A DNA stretch of 64,000 nucleotides from Planctomycetota bacterium (GTDB lineage: Bacteria; Planctomycetota; GCA-002687715; CAIWVZ01), in NCBI GenBank assembly GCA_017853435.1, contig JAFMJN010000001.1, positions 2,603 to 66,602 of the forward strand. Direction: 5' to 3'. Position 1 is the first letter of the stretch. Every line of letters starts with the position of its first letter. Of the stretch, positions 5,614 through 64,000 are shown in pieces. Below the pieces are notes generated by a model that worked only from the letters and a program-made list of their open reading frames with translations, searched no databases and was not told the DNA's origin. The position numbers were made by a program, and so were the translations under genes.

Positions 5614-5803
5614 CCGATTCCTCCGCCCCGAAGGGCGTGTTCCTGACACTGACCGGCCAAGGTTGTCGCTCGCAACTTGGCGGCCGGATTCAACGATGCG
5701 ATCCGAGCGAAGCGGGGCGGATTCTACGGACACGTTCGAAGTCCCGTCAAGCCAAGGGGCAGGGTTCGTGGATTCCGGGGGCCTCGGGGGGTACCCTCTC
5801 GGC

Positions 5804-6418
5804 ATGTCAGCCCCTCCCGTGATCGGCCTCTGCGGGGGCATCGGAGCCGGAAAATCGACGGTTGCTCGGGGTTTTGAGGCCCTCGGCGCCCGGGTGCTCG
5901 ATGCCGACCGGATCGCCCACGAGGTCCTCGACCTCCCCGAGGCCCGGGAGACCCTGTCCCGGAAATTCGGGACGGAAATTCTGACCGCGGACGGCAAAGT
6001 CGACCGGGCGGTCCTCAAGACCCGGGTTTTCGGGGACGCTCCGGACCGGGTGGCCGACCGCCGTTTCCTCGAGTCGGTGGTGCACCCGCAGGTGCGCGAT
6101 CGGATCGTCGCCGCGGTCGCCGACGCGCTGGCGGCTGCGGTCCCGCCTCCGGCGATCGTCCTCGACGTCCCGCTGTTGCTCGAAGGTCCGCTCGATGCGC
6201 TCTGCACACGGCGCGTGTTCATCGACGTCCCCGACCCGCAGCGGTTCCGTCGCACCGCGCGGACGCGCGGTTGGACCGAAGCCGAACACCGTGCGCGTGA
6301 AGCCGCCCAGATGCCGCTCGACGCGAAGCGCGCCCGCTGCGACGCCGTGATCACGAACGTCGAAGATCCGACCGCGCTCGCTGCACGCTGCCGCGAGCTC
6401 CTCGCCGACTTTTCCTAA
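5804..6418 (+). CDS. coaE: Dephospho-CoA kinase.
   Basis: GLCGGIGAGKSTV P-loop, DADRIAHEVL and VVHPQVRD motifs. ATG at 5804. The ORF-track start at 5663 is probably an upstream in-frame extension. Confidence 0.85.
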   Translation: MSAPPVIGLCGGIGAGKSTVARGFEALGARVLDADRIAHEVLDLPEARETLSRKFGTEILTADGKVDRAVLKTRVFGDAPDRVADRRFLESVVHPQVRDRIVAAVADALAAAVPPPAIVLDVPLLLEGPLDALCTRRVFIDVPDPQRFRRTARTRGWTEAEHRAREAAQMPLDAKRARCDAVITNVEDPTALAARCRELLADFS

Positions 6419-47464: not shown

Positions 47465-47470
47465 CGGGGC

Positions 47471-48316
47471 TCAGCGCAGCGCGCCTTCGGGGTTGACGTC
47501 GAGGGCGCGGAGATCGAAGCGGGCTTCCACGCGACGCCGGTCGTTCGGATCGGCACCCTTCCGTTCCTTCACGGATCCGTCGGGCGGGAAATCCAAACTG
47601 GTGACCACGGCTTTTTCGACCGCGAGCCAACGGCCGGCGAGCGCTTCGCTGCCGGTGTTGTCCTGCGCGAGCGCGCGCACCACGATCGACACGGCGCGCG
47701 GGTGGCCGACGACGGACAGCGACACCTTCGTCCCGGCGACGAACGGGGTCTTCGCGCCCGGGCTCTTCTTTTCCGGCTTGTCGATTTCGATGCGTTCGAC
47801 GCGAGCGATCCCGCCCTCCACTTCGCGTTCCGCCGCGAGAGCGATCACGAGGACCTGTTCGACGACGTCGAGTCCGCGCATCCAATGTTCTTGATCGGAT
47901 CGCTGGGACGGGAAGGCGTCGGGCAGGCCGAGTCGTTGGTCGACGTCGATATTGCGGACGGCACAGGCTTCGAGCGTCCCGTTTCGGAAGCGTTCGAGTT
48001 GCGCGTTGTAGTAAAGATCGGAATCGGCGACGTCGGATGCGATGCGCCATTCCTTCGCCGGAACGCGGGCGACGTTCGTACGCAGACCGTCGTAGCCCGC
48101 TTCAAGCGTGCCGCGGTTCTCGACCGCCTTGCGGAGGTCGAATCCGGCGGGCAGCGCCTGCTTCTGGTCCGCCTTCGCACGACCGATCTTCGCGCGCGCG
48201 GCTTGAATACGGCCGTCGAACGCTCCGTCGATCAAGAGGACGCCGACGAGCAACAAGAGCCCCCCCGCGACGACCGACATGATGAACTTGCGGTGTTCCT
48301 GCCAAATGTCGCCCAT
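47471..48316 (-). CDS. Bitopic inner-membrane protein, GspM/PilO-like assembly component (tentative).
   Basis: Single N-terminal TM (IMSVVAGGLLLLVGVLLI) followed by a helical then alpha/beta periplasmic domain. Sits immediately downstream of the GspL-like gene. Confidence 0.4.
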   Translation of the reverse strand: MGDIWQEHRKFIMSVVAGGLLLLVGVLLIDGAFDGRIQAARAKIGRAKADQKQALPAGFDLRKAVENRGTLEAGYDGLRTNVARVPAKEWRIASDVADSDLYYNAQLERFRNGTLEACAVRNIDVDQRLGLPDAFPSQRSDQEHWMRGLDVVEQVLVIALAAEREVEGGIARVERIEIDKPEKKSPGAKTPFVAGTKVSLSVVGHPRAVSIVVRALAQDNTGSEALAGRWLAVEKAVVTSLDFPPDGSVKERKGADPNDRRRVEARFDLRALDVNPEGALR

Positions 48317-48319
48317 GGC

Positions 48320-49990
48320 TCACGTCCCTCCGGTCAAGTCGACGCGCACCGTGTAGGAAAGCACGCCGCCGCCTCGAGCCGCGCCGCCTTTTTGGTCGGC
48401 GATCGACACGTCCGAGCCCGGAAGCGCTTTTTGAAGGCCGAGGACGAAATCCTGCAGAGCCTTCTCGGGCTGCCCCGCCTGCGACGTCGCCTGCCCCGCG
48501 ACGTAGGCGACGGTGCGCAGCACACGCGGCGACTTCGGGTCCTTCGGGTCGGTGGGGCGCGCCTCGCGCTGAACCGTGACCGAGCCGACCCATGCGCCTT
48601 CCGGCAGCGCCTCTTGAACGACCTTTTGAATCCGTGCGAGTCCTTCGCCGGGTTCCGTCCATCCGGCGAGGGCGGCCATCCTTTGGTTGATGTCGCGGAT
48701 ACGTTCCTGTTCGGTATCCCACGTCTTGCGGTCGCGCTTCGCCTTATCGGCCGCGCGGACTTCCGCCGCGGCGTCCTTTTCGAGTCGTCCGGCTTCGGCC
48801 ATGCCGTCCCAAAGGCGGAACCCCAGGAATCCTGCGGCGGCGACGCCCGAGAGGATCATCCACAAAGTTCGTTCACGGAAACTTCGTCGCGTCCGCGTCG
48901 CCGAAGTGACCACGTCGAGTTTGAACGCGGCCGGATCGCCCGACGTGATCATGAGCCCCAAAGCCACCGCGAACGCGCCCGGGTCTTCGAGGAACGTCTT
49001 CGCGTCCTCGGCGGGTAACGCGGAGGTGTCGAGCGCGTTTTCCGGTTGGAACCGAACGACGGGGCAGCGGAACGCGGCGGACAGGTAGTCGGAGAGACCT
49101 CGGAGGCGGGCACCTCCGCCCGAAAGCAGGATGCGCGAGGGTTCGAGGTCGCGAATCTTCGTCTGCGCCCGAATGAACGCGAGACTGGACTGAATCATGG
49201 CGGTTAGTTGGCCGACCGGGCCGACCAACGCGTTCGCCACTTTCTCTTCCTTGCCCGATGCGTACGCCGCGCGGCCCTTCGGGCTGACGTTGCCCGACTG
49301 GTGTTTCAGCGCCTCGGCATCCGCCGTTCCGAGTCCGAACCCGGACGCGACGGCCTCGGTCAATGCACGACCTCCGCCCGCCAAGTTGCGTGCGAACAGC
49401 AACTCGCCGTCCTTCACCAAAGCGATTTCGAGGTTGCGGTCTCCGATATCGACGAGAAGCGCGGCTTCGCCGTCACGCGGGTCACCCGTCGCGAGGAAGG
49501 CGTTCGCCAAGGCGACCGACGACGGAGTCCCGCAAGACGGGTCGCCGACCGTGGCGGCCGCGTCATGGCGGGCCGAGAGGAAGCCCTCCTTGCAGACGGC
49601 CACCATGACGTTTTCTTCTCCCGCCGACGCGTTCGGCAGTTGAAGGAGATTCCAGTCGCTCGCGAGCGCGTCTCCGACGGTCTGCGACATGTCGCGGACC
49701 TCGACGTCCATAAGGAATCGAAGGCGCCACAGCGGAACCTTCGGAACGGTCGTGTAACGGATGATCAGCGAAGGGCCGGAGATGCCGAAACGCACACCGG
49801 GCACGCGTCCCTTCGGGCCGAGCTCCGCCGCGAGTGTTCCGACCGCTGCGAGGGTCGCCGATTCCCCGTCCCCCGACGAATCGACCGAAGCCTGAAGCAC
49901 ACGCTGCAATTTCCAACGCGTCCCCGCACGCTCGGCGACGACCATTCGGACATGGTTGGATCCGAGATCGAGTCCTGCGAAAACCTTCAC
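48320..49990 (-). CDS. GspL-like protein (or PilM-PilN fusion). Cytoplasmic actin-like domain, TM segment and periplasmic domain.
   Basis: MKVFAGLDLGSNHVRMVVAE...LLVDIGDRNLEIALVKDGELLFARNL actin-like ATPase-fold motifs. TM segment TLWMILSGVAAAGFLGFRLW. Coiled-coil periplasmic tail. Confidence 0.6.
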   Translation of the reverse strand: MKVFAGLDLGSNHVRMVVAERAGTRWKLQRVLQASVDSSGDGESATLAAVGTLAAELGPKGRVPGVRFGISGPSLIIRYTTVPKVPLWRLRFLMDVEVRDMSQTVGDALASDWNLLQLPNASAGEENVMVAVCKEGFLSARHDAAATVGDPSCGTPSSVALANAFLATGDPRDGEAALLVDIGDRNLEIALVKDGELLFARNLAGGGRALTEAVASGFGLGTADAEALKHQSGNVSPKGRAAYASGKEEKVANALVGPVGQLTAMIQSSLAFIRAQTKIRDLEPSRILLSGGGARLRGLSDYLSAAFRCPVVRFQPENALDTSALPAEDAKTFLEDPGAFAVALGLMITSGDPAAFKLDVVTSATRTRRSFRERTLWMILSGVAAAGFLGFRLWDGMAEAGRLEKDAAAEVRAADKAKRDRKTWDTEQERIRDINQRMAALAGWTEPGEGLARIQKVVQEALPEGAWVGSVTVQREARPTDPKDPKSPRVLRTVAYVAGQATSQAGQPEKALQDFVLGLQKALPGSDVSIADQKGGAARGGGVLSYTVRVDLTGGT

Positions 49991-52446
49991 TTGTTCCCCT
50001 CCCCGGCGGAGCGCAAACGCGACAGCCGCGCTTCCGCGTCACGGGCGGATTCCGATCCCGGATGACGTCGGATGACCGATTCGAACAGCGCGGCCGCGAC
50101 GTCGCGACGCCCCCTCGGATCACCGGCGTAGTCGATCGCGCGCAGGAGCGAGGCCTGCGCCTCGGCCGTCGCCCGGGCTCCCGACGTGGTCACGCGATCC
50201 TTTTCGAGAGTCTGCGCGAGTTGTTCGAATGCGTCTCCGACGGGAGCGCCCTTCCATTTTCCCGCAGCGTCGCGCACCGACGCGATCAACGCGCCGTCGG
50301 TCACGATCGTACGGAAGAAACGCGCGTCGTCCGCCCTCGCCTCGAAATCGCGCTGAAGATTGCGCGCGACTTCGGCAAGTCGATCGACCGCCGTACGCGC
50401 TTCGGATTCGATGCGATCCTCGAACGGGAAGCGTGCGAGTACCTGTCCGAATGCGGACAGCGCTTCTCCGAAGCGTCCGGCGCGCTCCGCTTCGCGCGCT
50501 TTCGCGAGGAGCACCCCGGCCGCTGAAAGTTCGGCTTCGAACGAGGTATCGATCGCACAGCGGAAACTCGTGGCCGCGCCTCGTTTCATCACGAGGACGG
50601 CGACTCCGCGAGCGTCGATCAGCGAGACGGGGATCGACGCGGCGCTTCCATCCATCGCGACGAAGCGCAACCGGACGCGTGCGCCCGCGTCGCCGACGAT
50701 GACGGCCGACGCCGGCGACGCGGCGAACGGTCCCCGTCGACGGACTCCGGTCTCGCCTTCAACCGTCGTCACGGTGACTTCCGCCGGACTACCGGGGACG
50801 ACCGCGGCGAAGTCCGTCTCGCCGGAGGCGCCCGCGAGTTCCCAGCCGATGGTCGCCGGTTCTCCCGTCAATGTCGCCTTGAGTCCTCCAACTGCCGGCG
50901 TCGGGCCGCCGAATCCGGGCCCCGCCGGAGCTTTCGGATCACGGAACGACCACGCTCCGAAGTCGCGGAACACGACGCGACCGGGGCGTGTCGCACGCAC
51001 GGCCCCCGAAGATCCCATCGCGACGGCGAGATTCCCCGCCTTCGTCGCGGAGTCGGGCGGCGGATCGACCGCCTCCACGGACACATCGTCGAACGCGGCT
51101 TCCCCGCGGCCTGCGAGGATGAGTCCGACGCGCACCTTCGTGTATCCGCCCGGATCGGCGAAAACACCGGAAACCAATTTGAAATCGGTCGACTCTCCCG
51201 CAGGGAGTACGTCGCGGACCGCGACCGATTCGTCGGCGTTGAGCCAGTCGAGGCACAATCCCGCGTCCGCTCCCGAATCGGCGCGGACGCGCGCCGTCAC
51301 GCGAAAAGCGCGACCGGCGGCGACATCGACGGCACCCGACGCCCCTTCGAGCCGTACGATTCCGGGCGTCGGTCCGCGTTCGGCGCGCGCCAACGTCATC
51401 GCCACGCCCGAAGGTCCGTCCACCATGCCGACCGATGTGGGATCCGCCGGATCGAGCGGTTTCCATCCTTCCGCTTCGGCCGATTCGCCCTCATCGGCCA
51501 CGGGTTCGAACGACCACCATTTTTCGGGAACGAGGTTCGACGCGACGTGCCTCGACGCACCCGCGACGGAAACATTTCGCGCCTCGTTGCGCATCCATAG
51601 GTAGCCGACGCCCCCCAGAAGCCCGACGATGACGAGAAGCATCACGATGTTGAAAACGGTGTCGGAGCGCTTCGGCGGAACCTTCACTTCGAAGCTCGCG
51701 CCACCCATGTCGAACGCGGGCGCAATCACGGTTCGCGCCTCCGGTTCGTCGGGCGCCTCTTCAAGCGCTTCCGGAGGCGGAGCGAAGTCAGATGCGGCAC
51801 CGATGCCGAACGTCGCGGTGAATGATCCGAACGTCACGACCGATCCGGAAGCGAGTTCCGCTTCCTCGACCGGTTCTCCATCGACCTTCGTTCCATTGGA
51901 GGAACCGAGGTCCTTGACCATCCAACCCGATCCCTTTTTCCGCAATTCGGCATGATCGCCCGACACGGACGGGTCGGAAAGCACGAGCGCGTTGCGCGGC
52001 TTGCGCCCCACGGTGAACGACTCACCCGAAATCTTGACGACCTCGCCGCGTCGCGAACCCGTCCCGAGAACGAGGACGACGTCTTGTTCGAGCGAGATTT
52101 CGTCCTCGCCCCAACCGTCTTCAACCGCGGGTTCGGAAGCCTCGACGCCGGCGTCGAGAAACCGTATGGAAACGGATCCGACGGAGATCACGTCGCCGTC
52201 TTGAAGTTCGAACTTCGAAACCTTGCGACCATTCACCAAGGTCCCGTTGGAGGAACCGAGATCTTCCACGAACCAAGCGGAACCGTCCTTGAAGAATCGG
52301 CAATGCTGCCGAGACGCTTCGGGGACGTCGAGGACGACGTCGTTGGTCGACGATCGGCCGGCTTTGACCTCGCTTCCGAGGGCCAATTCCCGAAAACCGG
52401 CGGCGTCCGTGATGGCAAGTTTTGGCATGGTGCGGTGCGCGTCCAC
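49987..52446 (-). CDS. Membrane protein with two N-terminal FHA domains, one TM segment and a large periplasmic domain. First gene of the pseudopilin operon.
   Basis: Two FHA cores (GRSSTNDVVLDVPEASRQHCRFF...VEDLGSSNGTLVNGRKV and GRKPRNALVLSDPSVSGDHAELR...VKDLGSSNGTKVDG). TM segment TVFNIVMLLVIVGLLGGVGYLW. An alternative start is the ATG at 52428 (MPKLAIT). 4-nt overlap with the GspL-like gene. Confidence 0.65.
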   Translation of the reverse strand: MDAHRTMPKLAITDAAGFRELALGSEVKAGRSSTNDVVLDVPEASRQHCRFFKDGSAWFVEDLGSSNGTLVNGRKVSKFELQDGDVISVGSVSIRFLDAGVEASEPAVEDGWGEDEISLEQDVVLVLGTGSRRGEVVKISGESFTVGRKPRNALVLSDPSVSGDHAELRKKGSGWMVKDLGSSNGTKVDGEPVEEAELASGSVVTFGSFTATFGIGAASDFAPPPEALEEAPDEPEARTVIAPAFDMGGASFEVKVPPKRSDTVFNIVMLLVIVGLLGGVGYLWMRNEARNVSVAGASRHVASNLVPEKWWSFEPVADEGESAEAEGWKPLDPADPTSVGMVDGPSGVAMTLARAERGPTPGIVRLEGASGAVDVAAGRAFRVTARVRADSGADAGLCLDWLNADESVAVRDVLPAGESTDFKLVSGVFADPGGYTKVRVGLILAGRGEAAFDDVSVEAVDPPPDSATKAGNLAVAMGSSGAVRATRPGRVVFRDFGAWSFRDPKAPAGPGFGGPTPAVGGLKATLTGEPATIGWELAGASGETDFAAVVPGSPAEVTVTTVEGETGVRRRGPFAASPASAVIVGDAGARVRLRFVAMDGSAASIPVSLIDARGVAVLVMKRGAATSFRCAIDTSFEAELSAAGVLLAKAREAERAGRFGEALSAFGQVLARFPFEDRIESEARTAVDRLAEVARNLQRDFEARADDARFFRTIVTDGALIASVRDAAGKWKGAPVGDAFEQLAQTLEKDRVTTSGARATAEAQASLLRAIDYAGDPRGRRDVAAALFESVIRRHPGSESARDAEARLSRLRSAGEGNK

Positions 52447-52673: not shown

Positions 52674-52746
52674 GGTCCCGTAGCTCAGTGGATAGAGCAT
52701 CGGTCTTCGGAACCGCAGGTCGCCCGTTCGAATCGGGCCGGGACCG
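52674..52746 (+). tRNA. tRNA-Arg (anticodon TCG).
   Basis: Cloverleaf by hand folding. Acceptor GGTCCCG/CGGGACC, D-arm GCTC-AGTGGATA-GAGC, anticodon arm TCGGT-CTTCGGA-ACCGC (one T.C mismatch at 27:43), T-arm GCCCG-TTCGAAT-CGGGC, discriminator G. No encoded CCA. Confidence 0.75.
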
Positions 52747-52969
52747 CTGAGATTTCGCGAGGTTTCGCCGTTCCCGCACCTCCCAGTGCCGGAGTGCCGC
52801 CATCGATCTGCGGCCCTACCGGGCCGAGGAACCGATGCCCTAACCCGGTTACCCGGCACCACCGATTGCCGCCACGCCCGTTATCCCAAGCCTTCAACAA
52901 CCGATCGCAGAGTGGATCTGCCGCAAGTAGAACCGACTAGACGCGAGTCCAGCGGTCATGGCTTGGATC

Positions 52970-53497
52970 TCAGGCGATGGTGCGGACGGTGACCCCGAAT
53001 CGCCGTTCGCTGCCCGCACGCGCTCCGTTTAAACCGACCCCGGACACGACGGTCATGGCCTCGAGTGATACGTGTCCATCGGAGTGCGGGCGCGGACACT
53101 CGGCCTGCCCTCCGCTACGGCCCCCTCTACACTCTCTGCAGCCGCACTCCCCCTTCCAGCGAAGGACCCGCACCCTCCACCGATAGAGGATGGCGTCGTG
53201 GCCACCGACACCCCGCACCGACGAGTGAAGGACGGCCACTGGAGCAACGTCCTCAGCAACCAAGATGGCGGGGGCAGGACATCTCGTATCAAAGAGAACT
53301 GCTTGGGTCACGAGACGGCGAGCAGCATGACATGTCGGACGAGTTTCCGCCGTCGACGCGAGCGACTCCATCGTTCGAGTGCCTTCCAAACTGCGATTCC
53401 GATTGCGGATGAGCGGACGCACCACACGGGGGGCAGGACACCTCGTCGCAAAGAGGACCGTTTGGGTCGGGAGAAGGCGAGCGGCGTAGGGTCCCAT
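52970..53497 (-). pseudogene. Two tandem decayed copies of the Rhs N-terminal leader module (orphan Rhs 5' remnants). Probably non-functional.
   Basis: Translation contains ...ETRPTCHAARRLVTQAVLFDTRCPAPAILVAEDVAPVAVL... and ...TQTVLFATRCPAPRVV... These are homologous to the Rhs1 leader SLASTVENRPTCHAARRRVTQTVLFETRCPAPAILVAEDHAPLAVL (58500-58693). At nucleotide level 'ggcgggggcaggacacctcgtctcaaagagaacggtttgggtcac' recurs at about 53260, 53410 and 58540. Confidence 0.5.
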
Positions 53498-53502
53498 GCG
53501 CG

Positions 53503-53973
53503 CTACTGCGGTGGTGGCTGAGATCCCCGAGCCAATGGTCGAAACTGCTCACCGTTCCCAATTTGAAATCGATAGCCGACGCACACACCATCCGAAATGT
53601 GCAGACGAAAATACGAGGGGAGTAGATCGCTAGTAGGTCCTGACTTGGACGGAATGAGAACCCCGCCCATACGGTACTCAAGAATCGTAATCGGTGGTGC
53701 GGCTGACTCCCGATCAGGGGGGCCAAGGTTGTCATTGATCCACGCAGCGGTCCTTTGCAATACCCCTTCTCGTTCAACCAAGTCACCAACCATATAGGGA
53801 CGGCGATTAACGGGGCTCAGCTCATCACTGCCGCGCATCCTCCAAATATCTGGGGCAAATGGAATGAGTCGCGCAAAATCGTAGTGAGCATCATCCGCTA
53901 CCGCGAACGCGCCTAACCCCCAACCTAAGAGACCGGCAAATGCAACGGCAACAGACCATTTGACTTGAATCAT
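53503..53973 (-). CDS. Secreted hypothetical protein in the Rhs island (accessory or immunity candidate).
   Basis: The ATG at 53973 overlaps the stop of the upstream gene (ATGA). Signal peptide MIQVKWSVAVAFAGLLGWGLGAFAVA. AT-rich relative to the flanks. Confidence 0.4.
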   Translation of the reverse strand: MIQVKWSVAVAFAGLLGWGLGAFAVADDAHYDFARLIPFAPDIWRMRGSDELSPVNRRPYMVGDLVEREGVLQRTAAWINDNLGPPDRESAAPPITILEYRMGGVLIPSKSGPTSDLLPSYFRLHISDGVCVGYRFQIGNGEQFRPLARGSQPPPQ

Positions 53974-54614
53974 CGTTGGGCTTCGCTTAGCATTGCACTA
54001 GCGCCCTCGAAGAGTCCTAACTCACTACAAATGCCGTGTGTGAATTTCAGTCGCATGACAATGCGCCTTGGTTCAGGCGATGGCCAGCCACGCCCCGCGG
54101 TCGATCCCATATCGAACTCTGCGGACAGATCGCCGTGTCGACGATCAGGCGCTCCTACCCGCTCAAACACGTCTGTGGTCGACTGACCCAGAATCGATCC
54201 GTCTCGCGCCAATGCACCAACCATCGTTGCGCGAACCTGCCGCGGGTACCCGACGGTGTCGTGAGCGCTTTTCCAGACGGAGGGATCAAACGCGGACGAG
54301 TCCCAGTACTTGACTTGCTTCAAGTGCATCGACTCGGATCGCGATCCAATGAACACCAAGTACCCTAGGAATCCGACGACCCAGAGCAGTCCTCGCCATG
54401 AACGAATGAAATTGCCCGCGCGCCGTGGGTGGTGAATCAAGACCAACAATCCATACACCATAAAACCAAAGCACATGAAGCACACCAGCCCCAGTAATCC
54501 AGTTGGACTGGAATCAAAGCCTATCAGCCCGGACAAAAGCGCAAGCGGGAGCAAGAAAACCTGAACGCCACCTGCCAACAACATTCCAGTGAACCACTCA
54601 AACGAAGTCAACAT
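53970..54614 (-). CDS. Polytopic membrane protein, candidate immunity protein for the Rhs1 C-terminal toxin.
   Basis: ATG at 54614. At least four hydrophobic helices (GMLLAGGVQVFLLPLALLSGLIGF, LLGLVCFMCFGFMVYGLLVLI, LLWVVGFLGYLVFIG). Lies downstream of the Rhs1 stop in a low-GC patch. Confidence 0.4.
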   Translation of the reverse strand: MLTSFEWFTGMLLAGGVQVFLLPLALLSGLIGFDSSPTGLLGLVCFMCFGFMVYGLLVLIHHPRRAGNFIRSWRGLLWVVGFLGYLVFIGSRSESMHLKQVKYWDSSAFDPSVWKSAHDTVGYPRQVRATMVGALARDGSILGQSTTDVFERVGAPDRRHGDLSAEFDMGSTAGRGWPSPEPRRIVMRLKFTHGICSELGLFEGASAMLSEAQR

Positions 54615-54823: not shown

Positions 54824-57800
54824 TCACCTCGGCCTCCTCCTAGTCATCTTGCCGAATGCATATCCGTATGCCCACAGGTCCAGATCGGCGCCAACAGGGA
54901 TATCCCCCGTCGGATCGCCATCCAACTCAACACCGCCGTTGAGCGGATTGCAGCCTTTGGGTCCATGCCAAATCACGGGCCCATGCGGCATCGTCTTGCC
55001 TCCCCCAGATGGCGGAGGTGTGGTTCCACGGTGCACGGGAATCCGCCGCAATGGGTACGCGAACCGAAGCATTAGTAGCCCTCGGTCGAGTTTGTCCTTG
55101 CAGCAAGTCCAGCAATCGTCAGGCGTCTTCTTGGGAAATGCACACAGAAATCCAGCCTCGTTATTAAGGACGTCCTTCCTACTCTCACCATTCCATTTCC
55201 CACCTGCCCAGTTTTCCGTGTCAAAGAGCTCATGCGAACCCATTCCAGCTCTGGCGGCCAGCCCGCCATACTGCCTCACTGCCATACACGCTCCCACACA
55301 GTGCACCATTGCGTTGAAGGCCTCATTCGGTGCGTCCGGTGGAAATCCATGCTCCCGGAGCACCCTTGACGCCGCAGCCATCAAGCTTTCAGACTGAGTT
55401 GGAGGCGGCTCAGACAGCCCCATAACGCGCCGAGCGGCTCCGGCTGAGTTCTCTCCCATGCCCTGCTCTCCAAGCGGATCCGTTGTGTCAAGTGGCATGG
55501 AATCCACATACCCATACCCATAGACCCCCGACGCATCGAGGATCGGGTCCCTCTCAAGGAACCCGCCCGTCTCCGGCCGGTACCACCTTGCACGGTAGTA
55601 GTAGAGCCCGATCTCCTGGTTCCACTCTCGTCCCGTGTACGTGAAGTCCTGCTCGCCCTGCGACATGTTCGGGCTGTAGTACGTCCCCGTTCCGTCGCAG
55701 AACTGCACCTGACCGTAGTCGGTGTACCGGTACGTCTCGAGCACACCCCCTTCGATCGTGATTGTGTTTGTCAGATTCGACACGACACACTGCACGGTCC
55801 CCAGGAAGTCGCCCTGGTAGTAGCCCTCGTAGTAGTAACTTGGGCCTGCGTTGAAGATGTCCGCCCGTGCCCAAAGGATCTGGTCCATCAGGTAGGGGCC
55901 GTACACCCTCACGAACTTCACGCGGGACTCGCTCAGGGGGCTCGACCCGGCTTGCACCACGAACTCTTCGATCGGTTGCTCACCGTCGTAGTACGTGTGC
56001 GTCCAGAACGAGCCGTTCGTGTCCTTGCGCTCGATGCGGCGGCCAAATGGGTCGTACCGGTAGCGCCAGACATGACCGCTGCCGTCGGTCGCTTCGTAGA
56101 TCCGGTTCTCCATGTCCACCTTGACCGTCGGGGACGTCTTCTGGTTCCCGTTCGTGTCAAACGTGTTGGTCTCTTGGGAGGTCTGCGTCAGCGTCGAGCC
56201 GTTCCAGTCGTACACCGTGCGGGTGCCCAACTGGTTTTGCGTGTCGAACACGTGGTCTTCTCGGCGGACGCCCGACTGCGACGGGGTGTCGTATTGGAGC
56301 GTCTTCCGGTTACCCACTTCGTCGAGCGTGAACTGACGCCGGTAGGCGAAGTCCGTTGTGGACTCGGTGGCCGACTCCACAGCCGAGTGGCTGGAGGTCG
56401 CGTACCCCACTCCGTAAAGCGTCTTCGTCAGGCGGTTGGCACCGTCGTAGTAGTACCGGTCGCCGTAGTCGAGGACTCCGCCCAGAGTGGCCCCTGTGGA
56501 GGCGTTGATGTAGTCCCGGCGTTCGAAGGTCACTCGGCCGCCCGCGTCGTACCCGCGCTTCAGGTCGACCGTCGTTGTCCGAGTCCCGTCCTTCAGCCTA
56601 TCCCATGTGAGCTGCGTCGCGCGGCCGTACGCGTCATACGCGAGCGTCTCGCGCGAGCGGTCGGATCCAAGCGTCAACTTCGTCATCCGGCGTGGGCCAG
56701 CGAAGTCCCAGTCGGCAGCGACGACGTAGGTCGGGCTTCCGGCCGTGATGTCGTCGGTTCGCTCCAGTTTGCTCACGCGGTTCAAGGAGTCGTACGTCCG
56801 CTTCACTCCGGTCAGGCCGTCGGGATACTTCACGAGGCTAAGGAGCCCGTCTCCCCCGTACGTGTACTCGACCTTCCGGTACGTGGTTCCAGACCCGCTG
56901 TCGTCCGTCGGCGTGATCCACGTCGTTTCGGATTCGAGTTTGCCTAGGGTGTTCCACGTTCGCGTCACGAGGGAATCCCGATTGTAGGCCGAGGTCAGGC
57001 GGCCGACGCCATCATACAGGAACTTCACCAGTGTGGGGCCTACCACATTCGTCGCTAGGGAATACGACTTCGTCAGCAGCAGATTTCGGCTGTCGTACGT
57101 GTACGTCGCCGAGGACCCGTTCCGGTCGGTCCTCGTCGAGACGTTATGGGCTTGGTCGTAGGTTAATGACACGGTGTCCGAGCCCGCCTCGTCGTAACTC
57201 AGGGTCAAGCGGTCAGCCTGGTCATACTCGTAGCGGCAGGACGTGTCGCCAGACCCTCGGACGTTCGTCCGGGTGACCAGGTTGTCGTTCAGGTCGTAGA
57301 CCATCACCGTATCGAGGTAAGTGGGGCTGCCGCCTCCGGTAAGGCGCCGCCTCACCTTCGTCACCCGGCCAAAATCGTCATAGAGGTTGGCAACGACGTT
57401 GCCGTTCGGGTCCGTTGCGGTCCGGACCCGGCCAAACCCGTCCACGTCGTAGGTCGTGGTCAAGGCCGTGGCGGAGCCACCCCCTCGCTCGCTGGTCGAG
57501 GTAAGGTGCCCGTCGGCATCGTAGGCGTGCTCCACGACGTAGGTCTTCGTGGTCCCGCCTTCCACCTCGTCGGCCGTGGTCTTTGTCACCCGTCCGGAAG
57601 GGTCCAACTGGCTCGTGACAGAGTTGCCGAGGGCGTCTGTCACCTTCGAGCGGCGGCCAGCCCCGTCGAAGGTGTAGGTCGTTGTGGAAGCCCCACCCCC
57701 GCACCCGCAGGAGTCGGTCGTCTGGGTCAGGCGGCCGCTCTTGTCGTAGGACATCGTGAAGGTCACGGTCCCGCTCTCGATGTCCGTCGAGAGATCGGCC

Positions 57801-58693
57801 TTCTTGGCCCATTGGGCGGTGGACGTCACGCGGTTGTCCCCGTCGTAGGACGCCCGGGACTCGATCAGTTTCGTGTTGCCGGAGTTGTACCGCTGACGCG
57901 TCACCGCGTTCGAGTTCTTATCGAACGTCGTCGTTGCGTAGTGGGATCCCGGATCCGTCATCTTCGTCGTCCGGTCGAACCCGTCGTACGCGAGCGTCGT
58001 CGCGTTCCCCTTACCGTCTTGCATCTTCGTCAGGCGGTGGTTCTGGTCGTACTCCCGGACCGACGAGGAGGCGTAGGCCGTCCCGCTCGCCACGGTCTTC
58101 GTCACTTCCAAGCCACGCATGTCGAACGTCGTGGTTTTCGAGTTGCCGCGGGGGAGCGTCACGGAGGTCACCCGGTCTTCCCTATCGCGGGCGAAGGCCC
58201 AGATGCGGTTGGACCCGTAACTCGAACCGTACTGCATCGTGATCGCCGACACCTCGTCAAGGAGGGTGTAGGACGTGAGGATGCGTTGCTCTGAGTTCGA
58301 GATGTCGGCGTTGCCGTGGTCGCGACGGGTCTCGGTCACCCGGTCGTTTAAGTCGTAGAAGTAGTCGGTCACCTTACCTGTCGGCGAGGTCACCGAGGTC
58401 GGGTAGCCAAGCGCGTTACGCGAGATCGTGGTGGTACCGCTCGTTGGGTCGGTGATGGAGGTGACGTTGTATGCGCTGCGAACGCGCGCTGACGAGGAGA
58501 GGACTGCCAATGGGGCATGGTCCTCAGCGACCAAGATGGCGGGGGCAGGACACCTCGTCTCAAAGAGAACGGTTTGGGTCACCCGACGACGAGCAGCATG
58601 ACATGTCGGACGATTCTCCACCGTCGATGCGAGCGAATTGAGTGAGCGAATGGCCTTCGAACCAAGATTTCGGGCGCGGACGAGCGATTGCAT
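54824..58693 (-). CDS. Rhs/YD-repeat protein (Rhs1, about 1289 aa) with a short unique N-terminal leader, a full RHS core and a variable C-terminal toxin domain.
   Basis: Many YD repeats (YEYDQADRLT, YTYDSRNLL, YRYDPFGRR). Core end YYYRARWYRPETGGFLERDPI...DPLGEQG (DPxG cleavage-type motif) followed by a 230-aa unique tail. The ATG at 58693 with a GAGG SD is preferred. The ORF-track N-terminus (to 58834) overlaps the upstream membrane-protein gene in another frame. Confidence 0.75.
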   Translation of the reverse strand: MQSLVRARNLGSKAIRSLNSLASTVENRPTCHAARRRVTQTVLFETRCPAPAILVAEDHAPLAVLSSSARVRSAYNVTSITDPTSGTTTISRNALGYPTSVTSPTGKVTDYFYDLNDRVTETRRDHGNADISNSEQRILTSYTLLDEVSAITMQYGSSYGSNRIWAFARDREDRVTSVTLPRGNSKTTTFDMRGLEVTKTVASGTAYASSSVREYDQNHRLTKMQDGKGNATTLAYDGFDRTTKMTDPGSHYATTTFDKNSNAVTRQRYNSGNTKLIESRASYDGDNRVTSTAQWAKKADLSTDIESGTVTFTMSYDKSGRLTQTTDSCGCGGGASTTTYTFDGAGRRSKVTDALGNSVTSQLDPSGRVTKTTADEVEGGTTKTYVVEHAYDADGHLTSTSERGGGSATALTTTYDVDGFGRVRTATDPNGNVVANLYDDFGRVTKVRRRLTGGGSPTYLDTVMVYDLNDNLVTRTNVRGSGDTSCRYEYDQADRLTLSYDEAGSDTVSLTYDQAHNVSTRTDRNGSSATYTYDSRNLLLTKSYSLATNVVGPTLVKFLYDGVGRLTSAYNRDSLVTRTWNTLGKLESETTWITPTDDSGSGTTYRKVEYTYGGDGLLSLVKYPDGLTGVKRTYDSLNRVSKLERTDDITAGSPTYVVAADWDFAGPRRMTKLTLGSDRSRETLAYDAYGRATQLTWDRLKDGTRTTTVDLKRGYDAGGRVTFERRDYINASTGATLGGVLDYGDRYYYDGANRLTKTLYGVGYATSSHSAVESATESTTDFAYRRQFTLDEVGNRKTLQYDTPSQSGVRREDHVFDTQNQLGTRTVYDWNGSTLTQTSQETNTFDTNGNQKTSPTVKVDMENRIYEATDGSGHVWRYRYDPFGRRIERKDTNGSFWTHTYYDGEQPIEEFVVQAGSSPLSESRVKFVRVYGPYLMDQILWARADIFNAGPSYYYEGYYQGDFLGTVQCVVSNLTNTITIEGGVLETYRYTDYGQVQFCDGTGTYYSPNMSQGEQDFTYTGREWNQEIGLYYYRARWYRPETGGFLERDPILDASGVYGYGYVDSMPLDTTDPLGEQGMGENSAGAARRVMGLSEPPPTQSESLMAAASRVLREHGFPPDAPNEAFNAMVHCVGACMAVRQYGGLAARAGMGSHELFDTENWAGGKWNGESRKDVLNNEAGFLCAFPKKTPDDCWTCCKDKLDRGLLMLRFAYPLRRIPVHRGTTPPPSGGGKTMPHGPVIWHGPKGCNPLNGGVELDGDPTGDIPVGADLDLWAYGYAFGKMTRRRPR
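55502..58469. repeat. Copy 1 (Rhs1 core) of a 2,968-bp near-identical direct repeat. Its partner is at 60331-63298, period 4,829 bp.
   Basis: Nucleotide identity starts at 'atccacatacccatac' (55502 / 60331) and ends at 'ggtgacgttg' (58469 / 63298). Only one mismatch was noticed (ttgggtcgg vs ttggatcgg near 58446 / 63275). The ORF track shows identical ORFs offset by 4829. Confidence 0.9.
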
Positions 58694-58706
58694 CGCACGG
58701 GCCTCA

Positions 58707-59477
58707 TCACACGGTATCAACGTCTTTGTAGATAAATAATGGAAGTCGAACAAAACCAATCCAAATAAACTTAAGCACGTCAACTCGAACTGCGGCTTCC
58801 CGGGATGTCGGGTCCCGAAAAAGAACCGCATCAAAAATAATTCCGCGCCCGAAGAACGCTCTTAACGCTGAGCACTGTGGATGATCTGCGCTCCTATGAG
58901 TTTGGCGTTTCCAACTGAGTGCCTCGCGAATTCTTCGGCGGAGTGAATCCGGAGGCATCGACTCTTGTGGCGTGCCTGTGAACGTTTGGCCAACAAGCGT
59001 AGCCACATCATCGAAATTAATGTCAACCAACACGCCGCGTTCCATGGTCCAACACTTCTCACTACCAACCGACGAGCTCGAATGCAACGGCGCGCCCGAC
59101 AACCGTCCAAGGCGAAATGTACTCCAAACAGAATAGCCCCAAGCGACCAGTAGAACCGTAACCAGTTCCAACGACGGATGCGCCCAAGTAAAGTGCCAAC
59201 CCCCGAATTGCAACACGGCCGCTCCAAAATCACGAGTCAAAGCACACGCAAACAGAAGGGACTTCGAATCGAACAAAATAATTCCACGCCGCAGACTAAG
59301 GCTGATCCCGCCGTGAAACAGGACTAAGAACAAAGGGACAGACATTGATCGAGCAGCAACTAAATCCAGTAGCACCGTGCAGCTCATGCACGCAGCAAAC
59401 CAAACCGCCATGAGCAGTATCGCAGATGCGACCCTTGGCGGTGTTGAAGGGTGTTTGTAGACAGAAATTTTACTCAT
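58707..59477 (-). CDS. Polytopic membrane protein with a C-terminal soluble domain, candidate immunity protein for the Rhs2 C-terminal toxin.
   Basis: ATG at 59477, 58 bp downstream of the Rhs2 stop. At least four N-terminal TM helices. AT-rich (about 50% GC) relative to the flanks. The stop lies 13 nt before the Rhs1 ATG. Confidence 0.45.
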   Translation of the reverse strand: MSKISVYKHPSTPPRVASAILLMAVWFAACMSCTVLLDLVAARSMSVPLFLVLFHGGISLSLRRGIILFDSKSLLFACALTRDFGAAVLQFGGWHFTWAHPSLELVTVLLVAWGYSVWSTFRLGRLSGAPLHSSSSVGSEKCWTMERGVLVDINFDDVATLVGQTFTGTPQESMPPDSLRRRIREALSWKRQTHRSADHPQCSALRAFFGRGIIFDAVLFRDPTSREAAVRVDVLKFIWIGFVRLPLFIYKDVDTV

Positions 59478-59535: not shown

Positions 59536-62500
59536 TCAATGCCCTAACTTCTTGGGCCTTGAATCTGCCGGGATAACCGGACGACTCCCCGGGGCTGGCT
59601 TTACGTCAACGGGACTGTGTTCGACTTCTGGAATTAGAGGCTTGCGCTTCCTGCAGCACTTTTCGGGGGCGTACCCATCTTTCGCCTTCTTCAGATTTTT
59701 TGCCGCCTCGGATTGTGCGGCTGCATACTTCTCCAGCGTTGCACGGGCATCGGAGCTCGACAGTACTTCGTAGTGGTCGTCGCTGCCCATGAATCTAGTC
59801 CAACCATCCACTACGCCAACCGAGCCACCGGCCACTTCCGCTGCTCCCAGTGCGACTCCACCAACACTGATTTCAACAGCGACTCCAACGCCTATTATCG
59901 TGCCCGCCCCACCCGTCGTGGCAGTACTACCTACTACGACCACAATGCTGACAGCCACAGAGCCCAGTGCTACTCCAGCACCTTTCACAAGGACACCAGC
60001 GCCCGCGGCCATCTCAGCCATCCCTAGAAGAATTTGCCGTTCGGTACCTTTAACAAATCGGCCCTCGTCAAGCAGCCGCTCAAGAGGTCCTGCCTTCTCG
60101 CGCCACTTGTCCCATGCGTCGTCAACGGCGTCAAGGCAACTTCTTTCGAATTCACTGCAGCATTCCGTGTCAAAACTCCCCCCATTCGCCTCACACACCT
60201 TCTTCGCATCGACACACGTTGGTCGACAAGCAAATGCCCTAAGTGAACTTCTCGACTCTTTGTTCTTCTGATAGGGAGTCGGTCTTAGTGCTTGAAATCC
60301 AGCAGGGTCGATCTGGTCTGTCGGCATCCCATCCACATACCCATACCCATAGACCCCCGACGCATCGAGGATCGGGTCCCTCTCAAGGAACCCGCCCGTC
60401 TCCGGCCGGTACCACCTTGCACGGTAGTAGTAGAGCCCGATCTCCTGGTTCCACTCTCGTCCCGTGTACGTGAAGTCCTGCTCGCCCTGCGACATGTTCG
60501 GGCTGTAGTACGTCCCCGTTCCGTCGCAGAACTGCACCTGACCGTAGTCGGTGTACCGGTACGTCTCGAGCACACCCCCTTCGATCGTGATTGTGTTTGT
60601 CAGATTCGACACGACACACTGCACGGTCCCCAGGAAGTCGCCCTGGTAGTAGCCCTCGTAGTAGTAACTTGGGCCTGCGTTGAAGATGTCCGCCCGTGCC
60701 CAAAGGATCTGGTCCATCAGGTAGGGGCCGTACACCCTCACGAACTTCACGCGGGACTCGCTCAGGGGGCTCGACCCGGCTTGCACCACGAACTCTTCGA
60801 TCGGTTGCTCACCGTCGTAGTACGTGTGCGTCCAGAACGAGCCGTTCGTGTCCTTGCGCTCGATGCGGCGGCCAAATGGGTCGTACCGGTAGCGCCAGAC
60901 ATGACCGCTGCCGTCGGTCGCTTCGTAGATCCGGTTCTCCATGTCCACCTTGACCGTCGGGGACGTCTTCTGGTTCCCGTTCGTGTCAAACGTGTTGGTC
61001 TCTTGGGAGGTCTGCGTCAGCGTCGAGCCGTTCCAGTCGTACACCGTGCGGGTGCCCAACTGGTTTTGCGTGTCGAACACGTGGTCTTCTCGGCGGACGC
61101 CCGACTGCGACGGGGTGTCGTATTGGAGCGTCTTCCGGTTACCCACTTCGTCGAGCGTGAACTGACGCCGGTAGGCGAAGTCCGTTGTGGACTCGGTGGC
61201 CGACTCCACAGCCGAGTGGCTGGAGGTCGCGTACCCCACTCCGTAAAGCGTCTTCGTCAGGCGGTTGGCACCGTCGTAGTAGTACCGGTCGCCGTAGTCG
61301 AGGACTCCGCCCAGAGTGGCCCCTGTGGAGGCGTTGATGTAGTCCCGGCGTTCGAAGGTCACTCGGCCGCCCGCGTCGTACCCGCGCTTCAGGTCGACCG
61401 TCGTTGTCCGAGTCCCGTCCTTCAGCCTATCCCATGTGAGCTGCGTCGCGCGGCCGTACGCGTCATACGCGAGCGTCTCGCGCGAGCGGTCGGATCCAAG
61501 CGTCAACTTCGTCATCCGGCGTGGGCCAGCGAAGTCCCAGTCGGCAGCGACGACGTAGGTCGGGCTTCCGGCCGTGATGTCGTCGGTTCGCTCCAGTTTG
61601 CTCACGCGGTTCAAGGAGTCGTACGTCCGCTTCACTCCGGTCAGGCCGTCGGGATACTTCACGAGGCTAAGGAGCCCGTCTCCCCCGTACGTGTACTCGA
61701 CCTTCCGGTACGTGGTTCCAGACCCGCTGTCGTCCGTCGGCGTGATCCACGTCGTTTCGGATTCGAGTTTGCCTAGGGTGTTCCACGTTCGCGTCACGAG
61801 GGAATCCCGATTGTAGGCCGAGGTCAGGCGGCCGACGCCATCATACAGGAACTTCACCAGTGTGGGGCCTACCACATTCGTCGCTAGGGAATACGACTTC
61901 GTCAGCAGCAGATTTCGGCTGTCGTACGTGTACGTCGCCGAGGACCCGTTCCGGTCGGTCCTCGTCGAGACGTTATGGGCTTGGTCGTAGGTTAATGACA
62001 CGGTGTCCGAGCCCGCCTCGTCGTAACTCAGGGTCAAGCGGTCAGCCTGGTCATACTCGTAGCGGCAGGACGTGTCGCCAGACCCTCGGACGTTCGTCCG
62101 GGTGACCAGGTTGTCGTTCAGGTCGTAGACCATCACCGTATCGAGGTAAGTGGGGCTGCCGCCTCCGGTAAGGCGCCGCCTCACCTTCGTCACCCGGCCA
62201 AAATCGTCATAGAGGTTGGCAACGACGTTGCCGTTCGGGTCCGTTGCGGTCCGGACCCGGCCAAACCCGTCCACGTCGTAGGTCGTGGTCAAGGCCGTGG
62301 CGGAGCCACCCCCTCGCTCGCTGGTCGAGGTAAGGTGCCCGTCGGCATCGTAGGCGTGCTCCACGACGTAGGTCTTCGTGGTCCCGCCTTCCACCTCGTC
62401 GGCCGTGGTCTTTGTCACCCGTCCGGAAGGGTCCAACTGGCTCGTGACAGAGTTGCCGAGGGCGTCTGTCACCTTCGAGCGGCGGCCAGCCCCGTCGAAG

Positions 62501-64000
62501 GTGTAGGTCGTTGTGGAAGCCCCACCCCCGCACCCGCAGGAGTCGGTCGTCTGGGTCAGGCGGCCGCTCTTGTCGTAGGACATCGTGAAGGTCACGGTCC
62601 CGCTCTCGATGTCCGTCGAGAGATCGGCCTTCTTGGCCCATTGGGCGGTGGACGTCACGCGGTTGTCCCCGTCGTAGGACGCCCGGGACTCGATCAGTTT
62701 CGTGTTGCCGGAGTTGTACCGCTGACGCGTCACCGCGTTCGAGTTCTTATCGAACGTCGTCGTTGCGTAGTGGGATCCCGGATCCGTCATCTTCGTCGTC
62801 CGGTCGAACCCGTCGTACGCGAGCGTCGTCGCGTTCCCCTTACCGTCTTGCATCTTCGTCAGGCGGTGGTTCTGGTCGTACTCCCGGACCGACGAGGAGG
62901 CGTAGGCCGTCCCGCTCGCCACGGTCTTCGTCACTTCCAAGCCACGCATGTCGAACGTCGTGGTTTTCGAGTTGCCGCGGGGGAGCGTCACGGAGGTCAC
63001 CCGGTCTTCCCTATCGCGGGCGAAGGCCCAGATGCGGTTGGACCCGTAACTCGAACCGTACTGCATCGTGATCGCCGACACCTCGTCAAGGAGGGTGTAG
63101 GACGTGAGGATGCGTTGCTCTGAGTTCGAGATGTCGGCGTTGCCGTGGTCGCGACGGGTCTCGGTCACCCGGTCGTTTAAGTCGTAGAAGTAGTCGGTCA
63201 CCTTACCTGTCGGCGAGGTCACCGAGGTCGGGTAGCCAAGCGCGTTACGCGAGATCGTGGTGGTACCGCTCGTTGGATCGGTGATGGAGGTGACGTTGCC
63301 GTACTGGTCTCTTGCAAACGTCGTCTCGATGGCAAGGCCGGACGGATCCACGGTCACCTTCGAGACCTGGCCGCCGCCAGTGTACGTAAATGCCACCACC
63401 TTCGACTCTGGATCGGTGACGGTGATCGGGCGGCTCAGGGAGTCATACGAGATGCTGTACCCCGACGCGCCAGTTTCTGGAGACTTCTGGCTGGTGACGT
63501 TGCCGTTGCCGTCGCGCGTGATCTCGAAGTCTCGGCCGTTTGGATCGATGACCTTCGTGAGGAGTTTCCAATCAGACGTGGTCTGGTAGACGTACTCCGT
63601 CACAAGATGGTCGCTCCCAGATCGCATCGTCGCGATGCTGGTTGCAGAGAGACCCGATGCTGTGGATTTGATGGATGCCGTGAGTAGCCCACCGGAGTAC
63701 TGGTAGAGCATCCCGTTGCCTTCAGGTGCAACGGATTTCGTGAGAAGTCCCGTCGATGAGTCCCAGTAGCACGTCGTGTCTTCGAAGGATTCGGGGGATC
63801 GCTCCTGCTTGATCTTCGTGATCGCATAGTTCGAGTCAAACTCGAAAATGCGACGCGCACCTTCCCGATCGATCTCCGTCGTCTTGTTCATCGCGTAGGT
63901 CACGACGTATTTCTGCGTCGACGAGTCGCCAAAAATCTGCTTCGTAACGCGCCCCGATCCGTCGTACTCCATCTGCAAGTACGCAGCCCCGCTCGACGCT
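59536..64000 (-). CDS. Rhs/YD-repeat protein (Rhs2), 5'-truncated by the window edge. Its C-terminal toxin domain contains a glycine-zipper hydrophobic segment.
   Basis: The ORF is open to the window edge with YD repeats throughout. The core is identical to Rhs1 over 2,968 nt. C-terminal tail after DPAGFQ: Cys-rich region, then GAGVLVKGAGVALGSVAVSIVVVVGSTATTGGAGTIIGVGVAVEISVGGVALGAAEVAGG. Confidence 0.75.
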   Translation of the reverse strand, partial: ASSGAAYLQMEYDGSGRVTKQIFGDSSTQKYVVTYAMNKTTEIDREGARRIFEFDSNYAITKIKQERSPESFEDTTCYWDSSTGLLTKSVAPEGNGMLYQYSGGLLTASIKSTASGLSATSIATMRSGSDHLVTEYVYQTTSDWKLLTKVIDPNGRDFEITRDGNGNVTSQKSPETGASGYSISYDSLSRPITVTDPESKVVAFTYTGGGQVSKVTVDPSGLAIETTFARDQYGNVTSITDPTSGTTTISRNALGYPTSVTSPTGKVTDYFYDLNDRVTETRRDHGNADISNSEQRILTSYTLLDEVSAITMQYGSSYGSNRIWAFARDREDRVTSVTLPRGNSKTTTFDMRGLEVTKTVASGTAYASSSVREYDQNHRLTKMQDGKGNATTLAYDGFDRTTKMTDPGSHYATTTFDKNSNAVTRQRYNSGNTKLIESRASYDGDNRVTSTAQWAKKADLSTDIESGTVTFTMSYDKSGRLTQTTDSCGCGGGASTTTYTFDGAGRRSKVTDALGNSVTSQLDPSGRVTKTTADEVEGGTTKTYVVEHAYDADGHLTSTSERGGGSATALTTTYDVDGFGRVRTATDPNGNVVANLYDDFGRVTKVRRRLTGGGSPTYLDTVMVYDLNDNLVTRTNVRGSGDTSCRYEYDQADRLTLSYDEAGSDTVSLTYDQAHNVSTRTDRNGSSATYTYDSRNLLLTKSYSLATNVVGPTLVKFLYDGVGRLTSAYNRDSLVTRTWNTLGKLESETTWITPTDDSGSGTTYRKVEYTYGGDGLLSLVKYPDGLTGVKRTYDSLNRVSKLERTDDITAGSPTYVVAADWDFAGPRRMTKLTLGSDRSRETLAYDAYGRATQLTWDRLKDGTRTTTVDLKRGYDAGGRVTFERRDYINASTGATLGGVLDYGDRYYYDGANRLTKTLYGVGYATSSHSAVESATESTTDFAYRRQFTLDEVGNRKTLQYDTPSQSGVRREDHVFDTQNQLGTRTVYDWNGSTLTQTSQETNTFDTNGNQKTSPTVKVDMENRIYEATDGSGHVWRYRYDPFGRRIERKDTNGSFWTHTYYDGEQPIEEFVVQAGSSPLSESRVKFVRVYGPYLMDQILWARADIFNAGPSYYYEGYYQGDFLGTVQCVVSNLTNTITIEGGVLETYRYTDYGQVQFCDGTGTYYSPNMSQGEQDFTYTGREWNQEIGLYYYRARWYRPETGGFLERDPILDASGVYGYGYVDGMPTDQIDPAGFQALRPTPYQKNKESRSSLRAFACRPTCVDAKKVCEANGGSFDTECCSEFERSCLDAVDDAWDKWREKAGPLERLLDEGRFVKGTERQILLGMAEMAAGAGVLVKGAGVALGSVAVSIVVVVGSTATTGGAGTIIGVGVAVEISVGGVALGAAEVAGGSVGVVDGWTRFMGSDDHYEVLSSSDARATLEKYAAAQSEAAKNLKKAKDGYAPEKCCRKRKPLIPEVEHSPVDVKPAPGSRPVIPADSRPKKLGH
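60331..63298. repeat. Copy 2 (Rhs2 core) of the 2,968-bp direct repeat.
   Basis: See copy 1. Confidence 0.9.

Follow-up and report, generated by a model that had tools for sequence, protein, structure and literature searches.

A Planctomycetota Rhs toxin with an unclassified, probably membrane-active tail

The effector Tse5 (RhsP1, PA2684) of the Pseudomonas aeruginosa H1 type VI secretion system (H1-T6SS) carries an Rhs-encapsulated C-terminal toxin (CT) that forms an ion-selective pore and depolarises cells, and the membrane protein Tsi5 provides immunity to it (PMC9637101, PMC10684867). Channel-forming effectors have polytopic membrane immunity proteins "in almost all cases", and the glycine zipper, defined as (G/A/S)xxxGxxxG or GxxxGxxx(G/S/T), is typically extended (PMC12744356). 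In the mosquito salivary protein SGS1, an Rhs shell encloses about 230 amino acids (aa) of predicted transmembrane (TM) helices (PMC9935623). Here we describe a 64,000-nt stretch of DNA from a Planctomycetota bacterium (GenBank assembly GCA_017853435.1, contig JAFMJN010000001.1, positions 2,603 to 66,602; hereafter the window, from whose first letter all coordinates are counted), in which a minus-strand Rhs gene ends in a 257-aa tail with a G/A/V-rich hydrophobic tract and is followed by a gene for a membrane protein. The product is an Rhs toxin with an unclassified, probably membrane-active tail. By analogy with Tse5-CT and Tsi5, we hypothesize that the tail could be a membrane-inserting, depolarising toxin, at a probability of roughly 0.5, because of the size and hydrophobicity of the tract, the lack of an enzymatic signature, the small and simple flanks and the membrane-protein neighbour.

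The Rhs gene, its autoprotease end and its tail

The locus forms a classic island of the Rhs polymorphic toxin kind, membership of which was established by tests. The features that carry the argument are the following.

60310..64000, minus strand: Rhs/YD-repeat shell and Rhs core, the C-terminal 1230 codons of a gene that runs past the window (open reading frame list)
60295..60378, minus strand: Rhs aspartyl-autoprotease end, RDPIL...MPTDQIDPAGF (sequence; HMMER alignments to Rhs shells end here)
60067..60261, minus strand: six-Cys region, tail residues 17-81, modelled as a helical hairpin (AlphaFold2, single sequence)
59806..60021, minus strand: G/A/V-rich hydrophobic tract, tail residues 97-168 (composition, Kyte-Doolittle scan)
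59803..59841, minus strand: single formal glycine-zipper run A157-x3-G161-x3-G165-x3-G169, AEVAGGSVGVVDG (pattern scan)
59536..59805, minus strand: C-terminal part of the tail, residues 169-257 with the stop codon (AlphaFold2, composition)
58707..59477, minus strand: candidate immunity gene, 256 aa, 58 nt past the Rhs stop codon on the same strand

The listed minus-strand open reading frame (ORF) 59536..63978 is the 3' part of the Rhs gene and is open at the right window end. An exact-match scan of metagenome contigs led to contig L003, which carries a near-identical copy of this locus (7 mismatches over 5.8 kb), and the whole Rhs protein of 1896 aa was read from that copy. The protein has a hydrophobic stretch at the N-terminus, MINLSWKVLAPLSAVAAGALIYV, the RHS/YD repeats that form the shell (Pfam RHS_repeat, E=1.6e-55 in 10 stretches) and DUF6531 (E=5e-12); a Pfam search of this full-length protein found no PAAR domain, a divergent PAAR-like fold being possible. 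The locus is chromosomal, since the housekeeping genes ThrS, AspS and PheT lie in the same window, and its host is a Planctomycetota bacterium represented by a metagenome-assembled genome.

The Rhs core terminates in YRARWYRPETGGFLERDPILDASGVYGYGYVDGMPTDQIDPAGF, where MPTDQIDPAGF starts at 60330 and the D of DPAG lies at 60309. This end has the form PxxxxDPxG together with the Arg and the two catalytic Asp of an aspartyl autoprotease (YRARWY...RDPIL...PTDQIDPAGF), and the Asp of RDPIL and the Asp of DPAG are 23 residues apart. The catalytic residues D1141 and D1164 of Tse5 show the identical spacing of 23, and the CT of that protein begins at I1169, four residues past the second Asp (PMC10684867, PMC9637101). 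Alignments to SGS1 (E=9e-9), Salmonella Rhs, Tse5 and TccC3, obtained with HMMER against PDB sequences, all stop at the DPAG motif. By analogy, a cut after DPAGF would free 252 aa, corresponding to residues 1645-1896 of the full-length protein and 6-257 of the tail.

Exactly at the DPAG motif the GC content of third codon positions (GC3) falls from 0.83 in the Rhs core to 0.51 in the tail, and it is 0.50 in the next ORF. Overall GC content is 62% in the core, 56% in the tail and 51% in the immunity candidate; the AT-rich DNA to which the downstream gene had been assigned is thus AT-rich relative to the core, but not at its own 51% GC, and GC3 is the clearer signal. Low GC3 is common to all variable modules, which is expected for exchanged cassettes. 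Tail and immunity gene are exchanged together as a cassette, with an orphan module downstream: in the orphan module of this locus the repeated core is followed by a different tail and a different downstream ORF, and a third tail is joined to this core in the sister strain L002. In that strain (Ga0256350_1000164, 3582-6842) the core is split by a frameshift, and its Cys-rich tail of 259 aa (DPLGLQMVTEP...) is unrelated to the tail studied here, has no Pfam match and shares only a short CC-containing stretch with the second tail of the window (E=0.008).

The tail itself (60309..59539, minus strand) is built of three parts. A preliminary description of the window had quoted a Cys-rich and a G/A/V-rich string following the DPAG motif, and both are present there verbatim. 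Cys residues stand at positions 28, 32, 39, 50, 51 and 58, with further ones at 218 and 219. Run without an alignment, AlphaFold2 draws antiparallel helices 17-41 and 48-81 for the Cys-rich region, with a block confidence score (pLDDT) of 60-87, and is moderately confident in this hairpin only, the pLDDT of the whole tail being 50. The modelled hairpin may be stapled by disulfides. Each of the three alternative tails of this species is rich in Cys, which suggests action in an oxidising compartment.

Of the 72 residues in the tract at 97-168, 18 are V, 17 are G and 14 are A (68% G/A/V); the tract also has 4 I, 4 T and 5 charged residues. Its composition is unusual: at least 60% G/A/V over 72 stop-free residues was found at only one other place in the six frames of the 64-kb window. 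The Kyte-Doolittle scan yields two segments of TM length, at about 113-131 and 138-156. On the Hessa scale the tract is only marginally hydrophobic, with segment sums of +2.05 and +3.65 kcal/mol, compared with -2.1 for the first TM segment of the immunity candidate. The C-terminal part, residues 169-257, consists of a predicted helix at 185-211, the CC pair 218-219 and a basic, Pro-rich end (17 K+R, 9 P). The model shows each flank of the tract, roughly 90 aa long, as helix or disorder, and both seem too small and too simple to form an enzyme. A signal anchor, which the preliminary description had named as the outcome that would count against a zipper, was considered for the tract and rejected, because the tract is internal, lies behind the autoprotease site and has positive Hessa sums, and it does not look like a classical anchor.

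The downstream gene at 58707-59477 had been proposed as a membrane-protein immunity partner of the tail, and it is present 58 nt downstream on the same strand. Kyte-Doolittle and Hessa profiles of its product reveal two strong hydrophobic segments within residues 15-62 and two weaker ones at about 65-90 and 103-121, and the C-terminal half of about 135 aa is soluble; the four TM segments ascribed to it are plausible but not secure. The AlphaFold2 model is uninformative (pLDDT 36). The exact sequence of the candidate occurs on 23 contigs that were read, drawn from an index of 39 blocks of the collection, and among the matches listed it stands between the Rhs gene and the orphan rhs in 10 of 10 places. 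Only one amino-acid variant each was seen for the tail and for the downstream ORF in the copies compared, and the pair is thus fixed in one widely sampled population. The position and strand of the ORF and its constant co-occurrence with the tail make it a candidate immunity gene.

Test of the glycine zipper and comparison with described toxins

The tail had been interpreted as a glycine-zipper toxin because of repeated GxxxG/AxxxG spacing in the tract, and this specific basis was lost once composition was controlled for. Strict zipper matches number 3, all overlapping in the A157-G169 run, against 2.8 expected in composition-matched shuffles (P=0.49), GxxxG occurs 4 times against 3.6 (P=0.51) and [GAS]xxx[GAS] 14 times against 16.7. 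Small residues do not line one face of a helix (i, i+4), and Fourier analysis against shuffles detected no 100-degree periodicity of G or of G/A/S (z about -0.1 to -0.9). For bulky and small residues the periodicity is strongest at 140-170 degrees, with P=0.19-0.75 when the number of angles tested is allowed for. No described glycine-zipper or bacteriocin family matched the tail in Pfam (whole tail at E<=1, three sub-regions at E<=10) or NCBIfam. The tract is not a clear glycine zipper, and its GxxxG spacing is a by-product of composition. G/A/V-rich composition alone yields GxxxG matches, so a composition control is needed before a glycine zipper is called.

The absence of an assignable toxin family, which the preliminary description had noted by eye, was borne out by the searches, in which no nuclease, deaminase, peptidase or other family was matched. 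The tail, both immunity candidates of the window, the second tail and the L002 tail have no family match in Pfam or NCBIfam, and the tail cut into three pieces has none in Pfam even at E<=10. Against PDB sequences at E<=10 the tail gave only a spurious RNA polymerase (E=1.1), and its model gave a meaningless best E=2.7 in a Foldseek search of the PDB. Only the tail itself was returned when 5.8 billion proteins were searched by indexed words and 1.84 billion cluster representatives exhaustively with phmmer, and its cluster has three near-identical members; the immunity candidate also returned only itself in the word-indexed search. Two scans of genome contigs for the exact tail DNA and for patterns of the Rhs core protein gave no matches.

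Tse5 resembles the product of this locus in its aspartyl-autoprotease shell, its hydrophobic tail without enzymatic signature and the membrane protein encoded immediately downstream. The two differ in that the tail here is 252 aa long instead of 149 and has a six-Cys region and a Pro-rich basic end, the immunity candidate has 256 aa with a soluble half instead of being a small protein with two TM segments, and the Rhs protein lacks PAAR, has a Planctomycetota host and is accompanied by no T6SS genes among the scanned neighbours. No homology to Tse5 1169-1317 was found at E<=10 in the PDB, where entries 8cp6 and 9i9y are in the library and deposition of the CT chain is unverified, or among the 1.84 billion representatives.

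Gly-rich hydrophobic segments, usually with polytopic membrane immunity, are also found in other secreted antibacterial toxins: Tse4, the type VII secretion (T7SS) effectors EsxX, TelE and TspA, and Caulobacter CdzC/CdzD (PMC12744356, PMC12169545, PMC5380434). These glycine-zipper effectors have extended, periodic GxxxG, whereas the tail here has one run, no helical periodicity and an Rhs delivery domain. The ionophore toxins of contact-dependent growth inhibition (CDI), such as CdiA-CT EC93, share with it a variable helical module, sometimes disulfide-linked, that precedes a hydrophobic domain, as well as membrane immunity and polymorphism (PMC11630599). They differ in having CdiA with a VENN motif and a CdiI of 72-100 aa that forms a two-helix hairpin (PMC11630599), unlike the ORF of 256 aa with a soluble half found here. 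Their ionophore is a predicted five-helix bundle (PMC11630599), while the model of the tract here is unreliable, and no sequence similarity of the tail to them was detected among the 1.84 billion representatives. In the Agrobacterium T6SS DNase Tde1, a contact-dependent effector, an N-terminal Gly-rich hydrophobic motif likewise interacts with the target membrane (PMC10240207); that motif translocates a recognisable DNase domain, and no enzymatic domain is recognisable here.

The shell of SGS1 also holds a hydrophobic, G/A-rich C-terminal moiety that is predicted to become TM after aspartyl-protease cleavage (PMC9935623), although SGS1, a salivary protein of a eukaryote, carries additional receptor domains and its tract is not homologous to the present one (HMMER, -9 bits). 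The best PDB match to the end of the Rhs core (60298-60600 region) was SGS1 (8fjp), ahead of the bacterial T6SS Rhs structures. That SGS1 is the closest solved match in sequence fits the proposed bacterial origin of SGS proteins.

We surveyed 66 tails joined to related Rhs cores and found G/A-rich hydrophobic tracts in five, this tail included. One otherwise unrelated Rhs fragment, P0008 (L004 740-1771, Logan SRR28521187), has the features of this tail in the same order: a basic, Pro-containing start, CRP..C..CE..G..C, and a G/A-rich hydrophobic end. The ORF downstream of it is soluble and is followed by a Y1 transposase gene. The Smith-Waterman score between the two tails (z=5.8 against shuffles) is too weak to call homology, and P0008 may be related only very distantly or may have converged on this order of features.

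Proposed action of the tail and competing explanations

The sequence tests for the glycine-zipper, Tse5-CT and CDI ionophore families failed, and action resembling that of Tse5-CT stays, by analogy, the best hypothesis. The Rhs shell would enclose the tail, and its aspartyl autoprotease would cut after DPAGF and free the 252-aa cargo. Once delivered to a competitor's envelope, the 72-residue tract would insert into the cytoplasmic membrane, where its simplest arrangement would be a hairpin with two membrane-spanning segments, and could oligomerise to form a lesion that conducts ions and so dissipates the membrane potential. The Cys-rich hairpin, probably stapled by disulfides, may serve as a stabilising or targeting module, which would imply an oxidising compartment, and the basic Pro-rich end may bind anionic lipid head groups. 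In the producer, the membrane protein encoded downstream would confer protection, in that it would bind the tract within the membrane or exclude it. The marginal hydrophobicity of the tract would suit a toxin that is soluble inside the cocoon and inserts later. What stands of the original proposal of a membrane toxin is thus the long hydrophobic tract, the membrane-protein ORF and the precedent of Tse5, while its zipper basis does not.

Several observations weigh against a membrane-inserting toxin. The positive Hessa sums mean that spontaneous or Sec-type insertion is not assured, the tract lacks helical periodicity of its small residues, and its pLDDT of 26-36 in AlphaFold2 without an alignment is uninformative. 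T6SS-delivered Rhs effectors have a PAAR or PAAR-like N-terminus with vgrG and T6SS genes nearby; no PAAR domain was detected by Pfam in the Rhs protein here, and no T6SS genes were seen among the neighbouring ORFs scanned, which comprise genes for a TMEM260-like/TPR protein, FHA and PilM-like proteins and tRNA synthetases. There is no conservation or covariation signal because there are no homologues. The non-hydrophobic tail of the orphan module also has a membrane-protein partner, and membrane immunity is therefore not discriminating at this locus; the argument drawn from it in the preliminary description is correct in that the ORF encodes a membrane protein, but it is weak. In the three other tails with G/A-rich tracts and readable neighbours, the downstream ORF was soluble in two and a protein with three TM segments in one. 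These soluble neighbours do not contradict a membrane target, because a soluble immunity to a glycine-zipper toxin is known in ExiAB for EsxX (PMC12744356).

Other modes of action have to be weighed against the same evidence. The tract might be a translocation device that carries a small cytoplasm-acting module, either the Cys hairpin or the basic end, over the inner membrane of the target. The glycine zipper of Tde1 is needed for translocation and not for DNase activity (PMC10240207), and CDI tails have two domains for entry and toxicity, with a disulfide joining two helices in some entry domains (PMC11630599). The tail here is clearly multi-part as well; neither flank, however, matches a toxin family in Pfam even at E<=10, and each is about 90 aa of helix or disorder. 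Cytoplasm-acting toxins are usually paired with soluble immunity proteins, whereas the candidate of this locus is membrane-embedded, and we consider translocation unlikely. A tract acting in a beta form, either as a beta-barrel pore made from a beta-hairpin or as an amyloid-like surface toxin, would have a parallel in CdzC/CdzD, glycine-zipper proteins that are reported to form cell-surface aggregates (PMC5380434). The richness of the tract in beta-branched residues (18 V, 4 I, 4 T), its strongest periodicities at 140-170 and not at 100 degrees, and the strands that AlphaFold2 draws at 121-133 and 136-148 are consistent with such a form. Yet the periodicity peaks are not significant (P=0.19-0.75), the strands have a pLDDT of about 30, and the combination of beta-branched residues with Gly is likewise characteristic of packed TM helices, which makes the beta form improbable in our judgement.

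The tract could also be the anchor or linker of a so far unrecognised enzyme or binding toxin, or the whole cassette could be decaying and non-functional. Such explanations would agree with the lack of homologues among the 5.8 billion proteins and 1.84 billion representatives, with the low AlphaFold2 confidence and with a GC3 of 0.51 that is atypical for the genome, and orphan Rhs cassettes are often relics. The tail, however, sits on the full-length, intact gene and not on the orphan copy, and its frame of 257 codons is open. The order of Rhs gene, immunity gene and orphan was kept in all 10 places among the matches listed on the 23 contigs read, tail and ORF each vary by a single amino acid across the copies compared, and the low GC3 is shared with all other variable modules, as expected for exchanged cassettes. 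We therefore assign a low probability to an anchored enzyme or a decaying cassette. A new orphan family of membrane-permeabilising toxins, in which a non-periodic V/G/A tract, possibly a beta-hairpin and not a helical zipper, follows a disulfide-stapled hairpin, is delivered by a PAAR-less Rhs protein outside the T6SS in Planctomycetota and is countered by a new type of immunity protein with membrane and soluble parts, is possible, and we propose it tentatively.

The orphan module, the island and their meaning

The remaining part of the island comprises four further features.

54824..58447, minus strand: orphan rhs module (offset comparison with the Rhs gene)
53970..54614, minus strand: candidate immunity gene that follows the orphan tail and codes for a 214-aa membrane protein whose C-terminal part is soluble (hydropathy)
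58462..58712, strand not assigned: junction element, about 250 nt long, that separates the first immunity candidate from the orphan rhs fragment
52674..52747, plus strand: tRNA-Arg (TCG) at the edge of the rhs island, between the island and the FHA/PilM-like cluster

The orphan rhs is a 5'-truncated fragment fused to a different, Cys-rich tail of 218 aa (54827-55480), which has no TM segment and no Pfam or NCBIfam match. Its stretch 55502-58447 is a perfect copy of 60331-63276, with 0 mismatches in 2,946 bases, and forms a direct repeat of 2.95 kb whose end lies some ten codons ahead of the DPAG motif, at the YGYGYVD that both copies share. Identical repeats of this length favour recombination, by which the expressed toxin would be exchanged, and they are also a possible assembly hazard. 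The product of 53970-54614 shares its architecture with the first immunity candidate; homology between the two was considered and rejected (E=0.78).

The junction element recurs at 53191-53441, directly after the second immunity gene, with 75-82% identity, and a 57-mer core is present three times (53270, 53429, 58541), with none expected by chance. Gene callers read the first element as the start of the orphan rhs ORF; mismatches are distributed as 9/10/17 over the three codon positions, and the element may or may not be coding. The element may be a module-boundary or recombination sequence. A tRNA gene such as the one at the edge of the island is a typical insertion point of islands. A scan for promoters and terminators across the locus gave nothing above shuffles. 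Beyond the tRNA gene, an 1802-aa ORF (37909-43317, minus strand) has no Pfam match at E<=1e-5 and sits in a cluster encoding TPR, PilM-like and FHA/YscD-like proteins (44618-52446).

Unclassified orphan Rhs tails are common. To our knowledge, the interbacterial weaponry of Planctomycetota and the delivery route of their Rhs proteins are essentially unstudied, and the locus has value as a test case for its Planctomycetota host, its PAAR-less Rhs protein and a tail for which no relatives were detected. If the proposed action of the tail is true, it would be the second case after Tse5, and an unrelated one, of an Rhs cocoon with membrane-inserting cargo, and would extend the small group of pore-forming antibacterial effectors by a new sequence family.

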